NCBI RefSeq assembly: GCF_002854065.1
Contig: NZ_CP024154.1
Direction: 5' to 3' (one strand)
DNA: 64,000 nt
Source of the DNA: Escherichia coli
GTDB taxonomy: Bacteria > Pseudomonadota > Gammaproteobacteria > Enterobacterales > Enterobacteriaceae
The position numbers were made by a program. Position 1 is the stretch's first letter, and each line of letters opens with the position of its first letter. Of the stretch, positions 3,001-6,000 are shown piece by piece.

Positions 3001-6000
3001 CGGTGCATCGCCGGTGGGGGCCATACCACTGTCAGCGGAATACAGCTGATGCCATCCGGTCGCCCGTTTTTGTGAGTCCGGTTCACACAGCAGCGGAGCA
3101 GTCCGCTTTGTACTGGACTCCCCGCCAATCACGGAGACCGGATAAATCACCACGCTGAATTCCCGGGCCAGTTGCTTAAGCGCGGGTTCCAGCAGACGGC
3201 AGTTGATGCATGCGGGGTCAAGGAAGGCGTACAGCGTGCGTTCATGACCAGTGGACAGGTTAATGGTGAACATCCCCCGGTCTGCGTTGCGTTTAAGTAC
3301 TGTGGCCAGATTACGGCGGGCCTCAGCGGCCTGAACGTGTTGTTCTTCCGTCACTGCCGTCGGGGCGGGGGCAGAAGAAGGTTCCTGCTGTGTGGGAGCC
3401 GGGCGGGCCGGGATGCTGTTAACATGATGTTCCGTATGTGGGCGTGGTGTCTCTGTGTCGGTTACTGGTTCAGCTCTCCATTCCTGAGATGTAGGGTAAG
3501 CCAGCGTGGAAGGGGACTCTGCCTTCATCCAGTGGTAACCTGCAACTGTCGCCGGCAGAGCAATTCCGGCGATAAAGCCACACATCAGTGTCCGCCAGAA
3601 GCCATTTTTCCGGGAGGGATGTTTTCCTTTTCCGGCATATTCGGCATCCAGGCAGGCATCAATCGCTGAGAGCATTCTGCCGATGTGATGTCCGGGACGT
3701 TCTGCATCAACGGTATCAACAAGCACCGTTTCAGTTATTTCGCGAAAAGGGGAACTGAAGGACAGGTGCATCAGCCTGTTATTACGGTTAATCAGTGCGC
3801 CCAGTTCTGTTACCGGCAGGATGGCAATCACCTCCCGATTACCGTCAGGGTACAGGGCGGTCAGGGACAGGTGTTTATTATTCAGTGTTGCAGTGTAGTG
3901 GATGGTCATTGTTCTTTTTCCTTGTCGGCGGGATGCTGTTTTTCGGTGGTTTCGGTGGTTTCGGTGGTTTCGGTGGTTTCGGTGGTTTCGGTGGTTTCGG
4001 TGGTTTCGGTGGTTTCACCAGTGTCAGTGTCTTCGTCGTTATCATGGCGGCGGGGTATCACGTCATCCGTGAGTGACCAGCGGGTCCTGATCTGACGTTT
4101 ACGATCGCGATCTGGCTGAGGTTCGTCCCATATCAGGCCCAGCCCCAGCATGTCCCGTCGAAGCCCTTCAATGGCCTCTTCCACACAGGGTTCCGGGCAG
4201 GGGAGGCCGAGACGGCTGGCTTCATTTTCTGCCCGGGCAACGGCCACCACGCCGGCCCCTTCGATGAAGCCTTTTGTGGTGTTTGCCCGGTGAAGGGCAT
4301 AGAAGAGCGTCCGGTCAACGCCCTTGAGCCACAGCCAGTTGGGGGGCGTCAGGCGCAAATCATGTGCGTAAAGCCAGACAAGACCGCTGCGAACGTAACG
4401 GTGCTGCCTGAGCCACTGTTGTGCGTCTTCTGTTTTTATGACCCGGATAAAGGCGTTTCTGGCCAGTGAATACACTGGCGTGCTGAAACGCCCCTGGTCC
4501 CGCTTGCTTTTGAGTCTGCAGGAGAGGTTGAGGTTATTCATCAGGGAAACAGCCGATTTCCGGTCCCCAAGGAAGAACTGCAGGCCAAAGACGGCAAAGA
4601 GTGCTTTTTCATGTGGAGCCATGTCTTTCCAGGTGGTCAGAGGCTGGCCCAGTTGCGCCATAAAGCACTGGCGCGTGGCCGCAACATCGAGCTGCATGTT
4701 GCGGATAAGGTTGTTCTGCTCCACAAAGGCTTCGGGGGTTAGAGCGACACGGCGCTCGGGACGTTTTTGTCCGTGGAAGAGTCTGTTGCTGTCTCCGTCA
4801 GCCAGAACGGGGGCGATCGCCGGTGACAGTGATGAAAACAGATGTGGCAGCGTGTGGATATTCAGTGGTCTGCGGGTGAAGCGGGGCTGGGCCGGATGCT
4901 GAAACCACATCCACAGAAAGCCGATCGTCATGGGAAGCAGAATCAGCCAGAGGATCCCCACGGTCTGTGACATGACATCCAGCCACTGGCTGAAAGTGAT
5001 CGTTGCAGCGTTGTTGGCGGTGTTGGCCAGCAGGTTATAACGGGGGGCGGCAAAATGGTGAAAAGGCCCCCAGTCAGTCATCCCCCACATTGTGTGCAGG
5101 ATCAGGCAGGTGGCAAAGACGATGTCGGGTAAAAAGAGCCAGATGAGAAGCGCAAAGAGCAGACATATGGTGCCAACGATATACCATATGTTCATCGGGT
5201 CTTCTGTTGTGGGGGAGTGTTGGTAAGACACGAGGATTCCTCCATCGATAAATAGATAAATTTCGGGATGAGGCTGAGTGGAATTAATGCGAACAATCGC
5301 CGGTAATGACCGGGCAGGGCTGAATTCAGCAGGGCATTTTCACAGGAACAGCAGAAGGTGGTGAGAGACAGGCACAAAAAAGCCGACTGGTGAGGCCGGC
5401 TTTTTTGCGATCCCAGGGAGAGTGGGTGGCTCTGGCCCGGAGGAAGTCTCTTTTCAACTAACGTTACCAGAATATCGTTATATTCACCTGATCGCAATCT
5501 GTTCGTTACAGTCTATTGTTCCGGGAGTAGCGATATCGCCTGAAACAAGTATAATCAGCAAGTTAGCCTTGTCTGGAGACTTACCTTCGCATCAATCCAT
5601 TTGCCGTATTTTCGTAAAATTCAACAGGAAATATTCAACGGGAGTGAGAGAACTGCTGTCCGGGGAGGAGGTACAGACGCAAAAAAACCGACTGGTGAGG
5701 CCGGTTTTTTTGCGATTCCGGATCGAAGTTGGTAGCCCTGACCGGAAGATAACTGCCTATAACTGACTATGAAATAATACGGCTGAAATAATATTTCTGC
5801 AAGCACAGTATAAGTATATACTCGGTGTGTCAGCTTTGAGGCACGTTCTTTCCGGCATATCGTTCACCGGGATGAACAGGTTGCAAGTCCTGGCCAAAAC
5901 ATCAGGTGGTGCTGGTTTTGGTGCTCTGGCCGGAGAAGAACTGTCTATAACTGACACTATAGAAAACGTGGCGACAGGCAATGTAAGGGCAAACCACGGT

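Follow-up and report, generated by a model that had tools for sequence, protein, structure and literature searches.

Does a perfect tandem repeat near the end of a conjugation gene act as a switch, tune the transfer of its plasmid, or simply change in length with little consequence? The question is raised by a 9-bp array in the trbA gene of an Escherichia coli plasmid (assembly GCF_002854065.1, contig NZ_CP024154.1), contained in a stretch of 64,000 nucleotides that was analysed as a whole and is called the window below. The window belongs to a conjugative plasmid of the IncB/O/K/Z type, within the I-complex. In our opinion we are probably dealing with a hypervariable coding variable-number tandem repeat (VNTR) that always stays in frame and changes by slippage in a disordered acidic tail of TrbA, with effects that are for the most part neutral or mildly modulatory.

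The repeat array of trbA

The array occupies positions 3941-4016 on the minus strand, which is the coding strand, and was delineated by Tandem Repeats Finder and by reading of the sequence. It has a period of 9, 8.4 copies, 100% matches and zero indels, and its score of 152 is the highest in the entire 64-kb window. The repeat unit is TTTCGGTGG on the plus strand and GAAACCACC on the coding strand. At least 63 consecutive positions match at a lag of 9, with a probability of roughly 0.25^63 per position, and thus a chance origin in 64 kb appears to be excluded.

In the trbA frame the array reads (GAA ACC ACC)x8 and encodes (Glu-Thr-Thr)x8, amino acids 406-429 of TrbA. An initial sequence-only reading of the window had described eight perfect units with this coding capacity, and in that respect it was accurate. 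Its interval, 3944-4015, is one base off the in-frame block of Glu-Thr-Thr (ETT) codons at 3945-4016; every 72-bp stretch within 3941-4016 is a perfect 8-unit array. It also placed the repeat at the TrbA C-terminus. The array is indeed near the end of the protein, but it is followed by 12 residues (EKQHPADKEKEQ) before the stop codon and thus is not at the extreme C-terminus.

The ETT frame is considered real because homology flanks the array on both sides: the conserved WSLTDDV motif is found upstream, and the ATGA overlap with the next gene, trbB, downstream. The other five frames over the array, which yield repeats such as VVS, GGF, RWF and KPP, are mechanical open reading frames (ORFs) without homology support and were rejected.

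Copy number in plasmids and complete genomes

Positions 3780-4180 of the window were compared by megablast with 72,556 plasmids. This type of trbA was found in 470 records, mostly from E. coli and Shigella, and 463 of the 470 are typed as conjugative. The match spans are 338, 347 and so on to 446 bp, every step being 9 bp. Copy numbers were inferred from these spans in 60 evenly spaced records of the 470, and direct counting confirms them for the loci that were fetched. The sample contains seven records with one unit, six with two, five with three, seven with four, six with five, ten with six and seven with seven; longer arrays are represented by three records with eight units, one with nine, three with ten, one with eleven, three with twelve and one with thirteen.

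Direct counts of units between fixed flanks in 14 fetched plasmids cover each integer from 1 to 13, and all arrays of at least three units in the main trbA alleles of these plasmids are pure. In a search of PLSDB with a synthetic 25-unit query, by which the longest arrays are ranked first, the maximum was again 13 units. Complete E. coli genomes contain this trbA type in 380 of 5426 cases (about 7%; 392 records), nearly always on plasmids, and an evenly spaced sample of the 392 records again has a range of 1-13 copies.

The exact TrbA protein of the window (441 amino acids) was not found in a collection of 15 billion proteins, where the cluster members are low-copy and partial forms. The "partial" TrbA entries P0002 (405 amino acids, 96 members, ending with ...DTDTG) and P0061 (406 amino acids, ending with ...DTDTGE) terminate exactly where the array begins. 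Thus it is likely that short-read draft contigs often break at the repeat.

Copy number and divergence of the plasmid backbones

The copy number changes on backbones that are otherwise identical. Four plasmids from Australia, Korea, Korea and the UK (L006, L007, L008 and L012, respectively) have 100% identical flanks (3161 + 3168 = 6,329 bp), yet they carry 3, 5, 6 and 10 units. The closest relative of the window is pRHBSTW-00321_4 (CP056607.1), typed as IncK2/Z, MOBP and MPF_I, in which 25 kb of the tra/pil region is 100.0% identical to that of the window. It differs from the window by 5 single-nucleotide polymorphisms across 49,687 aligned bases and has 7 units as opposed to 8; the missing unit is the sole indel between the two sequences. 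The array is the fastest-evolving site among the compared backbones.

Two further diverged trbA alleles have 4, 7 and 8 units and 9, 11 and 12 units, with 0-1 differences in the flanks of some pairs, so that each of the three diverged alleles occurs with several copy numbers. Within clones, the number is constant: 10 units are present in each of seven S. sonnei plasmids of approximately 86.8 kb, and 13 in each of three plasmids of 108.8 kb. The rate of change seems to be VNTR-like, that is, quick relative to substitutions but not chaotic, and stable on outbreak time scales. The sequence-only reading had viewed the array as a substrate of slipped-strand mispairing and had named an invariant copy number across homologues as the observation that would speak against this. 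Invariance was looked for in the relatives, and the number varies from 1 to 13 in exact 9-bp steps, even where the backbones have no or almost no point differences, in agreement with that proposal.

Some alleles contain the variant unit TTTCAGTGG, a synonymous change of ACC to ACT. It interrupts the low-copy arrays of two plasmids (L005 and L014). Such interrupted low-copy arrays are expected if purity drives slippage. In pO104_H21 (L017, NZ_CP023542.1, locus at about 460-532), the same variant has been expanded independently to an 8-unit array within a diverged trbA allele, with one unit mutated from Thr to Ile (ETTETTETTEITETT). The 1-unit allele already holds a proto-repeat of 1.67 units, GAAACCACCGAAACC. 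The interrupted low-copy arrays, the expansion of TTTCAGTGG and the proto-repeat all fit slippage.

TrbA and its C-terminal tail

The trbA gene (3906-5231, minus strand; 441 amino acids and the stop codon) was identified by its ORF, a match to the Pfam family DotM_C, similarity to DotM structures and annotation in related plasmids, which label it "IncI1-type conjugal transfer protein TrbA". The gene name given by the sequence-only reading is confirmed by this annotation and domain, and by the DsbC-like trbB and the trbC gene that follow. The DotM_C match (PF23127; E=5.2e-47, 160.7 bits with the cut-off of 27) covers amino acids 185-358, or positions 4158-4679 on the minus strand; this cytoplasmic domain is basic (net charge +9, pI 9.8). 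The score with the NCBIfam equivalog DotM_IcmP (NF033890) is 72.4 bits and falls below the cut-off of 230, so TrbA is a related subfamily and not an equivalog of Legionella DotM/IcmP.

A sequence search of the Protein Data Bank with TrbA retrieved Legionella DotM structures (E about 1e-7, amino acids 186-358, approximately 25% identity). In the AlphaFold2 (AF2) model, built from an alignment of 32 homologues, the predicted local distance difference test (pLDDT) score of the domain is mostly above 85. Foldseek searches with this model matched DotM structures with probability 1.0 (5x1u_A, TMt 0.88, root-mean-square deviation 2.3 A), including chain 6sz9_B of the intact coupling complex; the best match other than DotM had E>2. 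The paper on the DotM structure describes the function of TrbA as unknown (PMC5802825). The gene adjoins the DotL-like ATPase gene trbC inside an I-type (MPF_I) transfer region, the tra/pil genes and the MPF_I typing coming from the near-identical CP056607.1. In the type IVB (I-type) coupling complex, TrbA is the DotM/IcmP-like subunit; its parts are membrane helices at the N-terminus, DotM_C in the cytoplasm and an acidic tail that is predicted to be disordered.

The array is situated in this tail. Amino acids 377-441 (3909-4103, minus strand) are predicted to be disordered, as the block means of pLDDT are 29-37, below the threshold of 50, and no secondary structure is present. The acidic part, amino acids 386-441 (3909-4076, minus strand), has a net charge of -14 at 8 units. 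Each ETT unit contributes one extra negative charge, and the natural alleles range from roughly -7 to -19. The tail is preceded by the strongly conserved basic/acidic motif PQPDRDRKRxIRTxWSLTDDV.

TrbA homologues with 37-75% identity, from R64-type IncI1 plasmids and other Enterobacteriaceae, have 401-406 amino acids and no array, and the repeat was not found in any other lineage of the TrbA family that was retrieved. Thus the core function of TrbA does not need the array. All 39 complete representatives from outside the B/O/K/Z lineage (among P0003-P0043) end 12-24 residues past the motif with an acidic sequence and a C-terminal Phe, for example ...RPGDGDDDSPF or ...PATDHEF. Only the B/O/K/Z lineage ends with (ETT)n EKQHPADKEKEQ and has no terminal Phe, a motif that the lineage of the window has lost. 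The acidic C-termini with Phe in the other lineages resemble the TraM-binding tail of TraD from the F plasmid. They may be docking peptides, of which the literature consulted contains no description.

Probable slippage in a predicted disordered tail

The preferred explanation is as follows. Perfect head-to-tail units of 9 bp would misalign during replication (slipped-strand mispairing), and whole units would be gained or lost much faster than point mutations build up. As the unit is three codons, the frame, the last 12 trbA codons and the trbB start coupled through ATGA are always kept. At the protein level, the result is that a predicted disordered acidic tail, presumably cytoplasmic, is lengthened or shortened by Glu-Thr-Thr units. 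This tail hangs from the basic TrbA domain with the DotM fold; in the coupling complex, TrbA is a subunit alongside TrbC (the DotL-like ATPase). The tail tolerates anything between 1 and 13 units among circulating plasmids with a conjugative typing. The variation in tail length is probably mostly neutral or mildly modulatory, and not essential.

The array cannot be an on/off switch, because a unit of three codons keeps both the frame and the start of trbB. Indeed, all counted alleles retain the frame and the overlap with trbB, and there is no promoter in the region. As the sequence-only reading had assumed, no change disturbs the frame and the acidic tail varies in length; nothing else is altered, and every unit adds one negative charge. 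That reading had also called TrbA an essential transfer protein, and this is borne out by the IncB/O/K/Z plasmid pMS7163B, where a trbA::Cm mutant is unable to conjugate and is complemented in trans (PMC10286972).

Several observations weigh against this explanation. Slippage and its rate are deduced by comparing assemblies. Arrays have remained pure in trbA alleles whose DNA differs by 4-8%, the second unit variant was expanded independently and still kept ETT, and there is an apparent upper bound of about 13 units; together these features could reflect selection on the tail instead of neutrality. Finally, acidic tails are conserved throughout the TrbA family, and thus the charge of the tail may matter.

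Alternative explanations

The length of the tail may possibly tune transfer. The Glu-rich tail could serve as an acidic pseudo-substrate or an electrostatic gate on the basic DotM-like surface, in cis or on neighbours in the hexamer, so that the number of units would set how fast the plasmid is transferred or which substrate is preferred, with selection keeping the locus mutable. We consider this unlikely. In its favour, Legionella DotM binds acidic Glu-rich signal peptides via arginine patches (R196/R197, R217 and R314/R315) (PMC5802825; PMC7280309). The cytoplasmic domain of TrbA has the DotM fold and a charge of +9, against a tail of about -7 to -19 depending on the copy number, and DotM R314 has a counterpart in TrbA R307 (in VDRTLFY), invariant in the alignment. 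The retention of acidic tails across TrbA lineages, of purity in three diverged alleles and of ETT in the expanded second variant points the same way, as does the tuning of a type IV secretion system (T4SS) by repeats in CagY (PMC3585145; PMC2194252). However, the other peptide-binding positions of DotM are not conserved in TrbA, where D203 aligns with R217 and no pair of arginines is found at R196/R197. The AF2 model shows no confident docking of the tail (pLDDT of approximately 30), the distribution of copy numbers is broad and flat without a preferred value, and other TrbA lineages work without the array. Moreover, the C-terminus of the Sog-like primase encoded in the window is not obviously Glu-rich, and thus recognition of Glu-rich signals in I-type conjugation is unsupported; the window does not contain nikB.

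With a slender chance of being right, one can go further and view the ETT array as a heritable, mutable charge dial on the coupling complex: slippage would alter both the negative charge and the reach of a pseudo-substrate tail beside the DotM-like receptor surface, and would create subpopulations of one plasmid that differ in transfer rate or substrate gating. If true, this would be a bet-hedging rheostat that sets the cost of conjugation against spread, similar to CagY but acting on a type IVB system from its cytoplasmic face.

Another possibility, which we find quite improbable, is a flexible spacer of the kind known in F-like TraD: the array would be a variable linker whose end docks a partner in the relaxosome or coupling complex, and the number of units would alter reach or avidity. 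In the C-terminal extension of TraD, a QQP repeat of variable length precedes an acidic TraM-binding tail that sets specificity (PMC3245843; PMC3159463), and the short acidic tails with C-terminal Phe in all 39 TrbA representatives described above look like docking peptides. However, the B/O/K/Z lineage, ending with ...EKQHPADKEKEQ, has no terminal Phe motif, and the partner is hypothetical. The conservation of the 12 residues after the array is ambiguous, as the same nucleotides carry the ribosome-binding site (RBS) of trbB.

A role at the level of nucleic acids is very improbable. The array is located directly upstream of the ATGA-coupled start of trbB, and the repeat RNA is A/C-rich and predicted to be unstructured; the copy number might alter trbB expression through mRNA structure or delivery of ribosomes, or the array might be a protein-binding or promoter element. 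However, in partition-function folding by ViennaRNA of the region from the 3' end of trbA through the trbB start, the probability that the trbB RBS is unpaired stays at 0.81-0.83 from 0 to 20 units, the repeat RNA itself being predicted as unpaired. The distance from the Shine-Dalgarno box to the start codon is not affected by the array. No sigma-70-like promoter was found within 3600-4400 on either strand, terminator-like matches were not meaningfully commoner than in shuffled sequences, and no Rfam family overlaps the array. The unit variants are synonymous, which is a better fit to protein-level or neutral constraint than to constraint on a DNA site. Control of trbB by copy-dependent mRNA structure was therefore rejected as unsupported, the accessibility of the RBS being unchanged, and so was a promoter, terminator or RNA-family element over the array.

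Finally, the differences are almost certainly not artefacts of assembly or sequencing: short-read drafts do break at the array (P0002, P0061), which makes the locus awkward for assemblers, but the differences without exception come in whole 9-bp steps with pure units, recur in hundreds of complete assemblies, both old reference plasmids and more recent sequences (e.g. pECOED, pO26-Vir), are reproducible within clones (the S. sonnei plasmids with 10 units and the 108.8-kb plasmids with 13), and involve arrays of 9-117 bp, shorter than typical reads.

Comparison with known repeats

The nearest analogue of the trbA array is the variable QQP repeat of F-like TraD, situated in an unstructured C-terminal extension and comprising 5 residues in F and 23 in R1 (PMC3245843). 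In TraD, the acidic tail after this repeat binds TraM (PMC3159463). Both proteins belong to the coupling apparatus of conjugative plasmids, and in both a three-residue repeat in an unstructured C-terminal extension, in the context of an acidic tail, differs in length among closely related plasmids. However, TraD is a VirD4-type ATPase of type IVA (F-type) systems, whereas TrbA is a DotM-like accessory subunit of type IVB (I-type) systems; the repeated residues are QQP in the former and ETT in the latter. TraD has a defined acidic/aromatic TraM-binding tail after the repeat, whereas the TrbA lineage of the window lacks the terminal Phe. The population-scale series from 1 to 13 units on identical backbones comes from the present analysis of TrbA and not from the literature on TraD.

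Legionella DotM/IcmP shares with TrbA the fold of the cytoplasmic domain (DotM_C), the basic surface of this domain, the equivalent of R314 and a DotL-like ATPase partner. On the other hand, with its identity of only about 25%, TrbA is below the equivalog cut-off (72 vs 230 bits), and most of the peptide-binding arginines are not conserved.

In CagY of Helicobacter pylori, as in TrbA, repeats are gained and lost in frame in an essential T4SS component, and the full-length protein is always made. However, the repeats of CagY are long and undergo rearrangement through homologous recombination; they belong to a surface-exposed VirB10 homologue, and it has been demonstrated that their change switches the function of the T4SS when the immune system exerts pressure (PMC3585145; PMC2194252). 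TrbA, unlike CagY, has units of 9 bp in a tail that is presumably cytoplasmic.

Classical contingency loci have units that are not multiples of three, or lie in promoter spacers, so that genes are switched on and off. The trbA array shares with such loci, and with coding VNTRs of the type used in multiple-locus VNTR analysis, perfect short units, a copy number that moves in steps and faster than point mutations accumulate, and a length that is constant within clones but varies from clone to clone. Unlike classical contingency loci, it can change only the length of the tail. It is a coding VNTR in the tail of a coupling-apparatus protein, genuine but, as hypervariable repeats go, rather ordinary. 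No mention of it was found in the searched literature on TrbA, IncI1, IncK/IncZ and tandem repeats, including papers on IncK2 and the I-complex.

Neighbouring genes and other repeats in the window

The gene order trbA-trbB-trbC is common to the window and its annotated relatives. On the minus strand, the stop codon TGA of trbA (3908-3906) overlaps the start codon ATG of trbB (3909-3907), forming ATGA at 3906-3909, and a candidate Shine-Dalgarno box of trbB, AAGGA, is contained within the final trbA codons, the SD-like motif and start region being 35 nt downstream of the array. Apparently, trbB is translationally coupled to trbA. The trbB gene (2785-3909, minus strand) was identified as an ORF and encodes a DsbC/thioredoxin-like protein of 374 amino acids, annotated in relatives as "DsbC family protein". 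A long N-terminal region precedes the thioredoxin-like match at amino acids 222-339, which is under the Pfam gathering score (21.8 vs 27 bits); the N-terminal half contains a hydrophobic segment and a low-complexity stretch rich in Pro, Thr and Glu. A trbB mutant of pMS7163B has reduced transfer (PMC10286972). The product of trbC (501-2804, minus strand; 767 amino acids) is a DotL-like type IV coupling protein, with 1005 bits for the NCBIfam equivalog TrbC_conju (cut-off 800) and a match to Pfam TraG-D_C.

Upstream of trbA, at 5679-5766 on the minus strand, there is a match to the Rfam antisense RNA family AgrB (RF02891; 47.7 bits with the gathering score of 40). Relatives have DinQ-like type I toxin genes (dqlB) annotated where this match falls, and this region is probably a type I toxin-antitoxin module beside the transfer genes.

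Two other perfect arrays in the window have 8-bp units. One, at 60491-60580, consists of (AAGATAAC)x7 followed by inverted GTTATCTT copies; the other, at 61624-61697, consists of (AAGATAAC)x7 and two AGGATAAC units. They flank a pair of genes on the minus strand (60574-61499) encoding a ParA-like protein of 208 amino acids with a Walker A motif and a small protein of 100 amino acids. The two arrays resemble the centromere iterons of a type Ib partition locus, one set being upstream and the other downstream.

Significance

Plasmids of the IncB/O/K/Z group are common carriers of extended-spectrum beta-lactamase, AmpC and virulence genes in E. coli and Shigella. The trbA array could be a cheap, high-resolution marker for tracking them by sizing of polymerase chain reaction products, as its length is constant within an outbreak clone and differs from clone to clone. 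The same array is also a trap: it breaks short-read contigs, gives rise to "partial" TrbA annotations, and inflates the apparent allele diversity and differences in identity. Finally, isogenic backbones with a natural series of tails of 1 to 13 units provide an experiment that nature has already set up, on whether the acidic tail of a DotM-like subunit has a regulatory role in a conjugative type IVB coupling complex.

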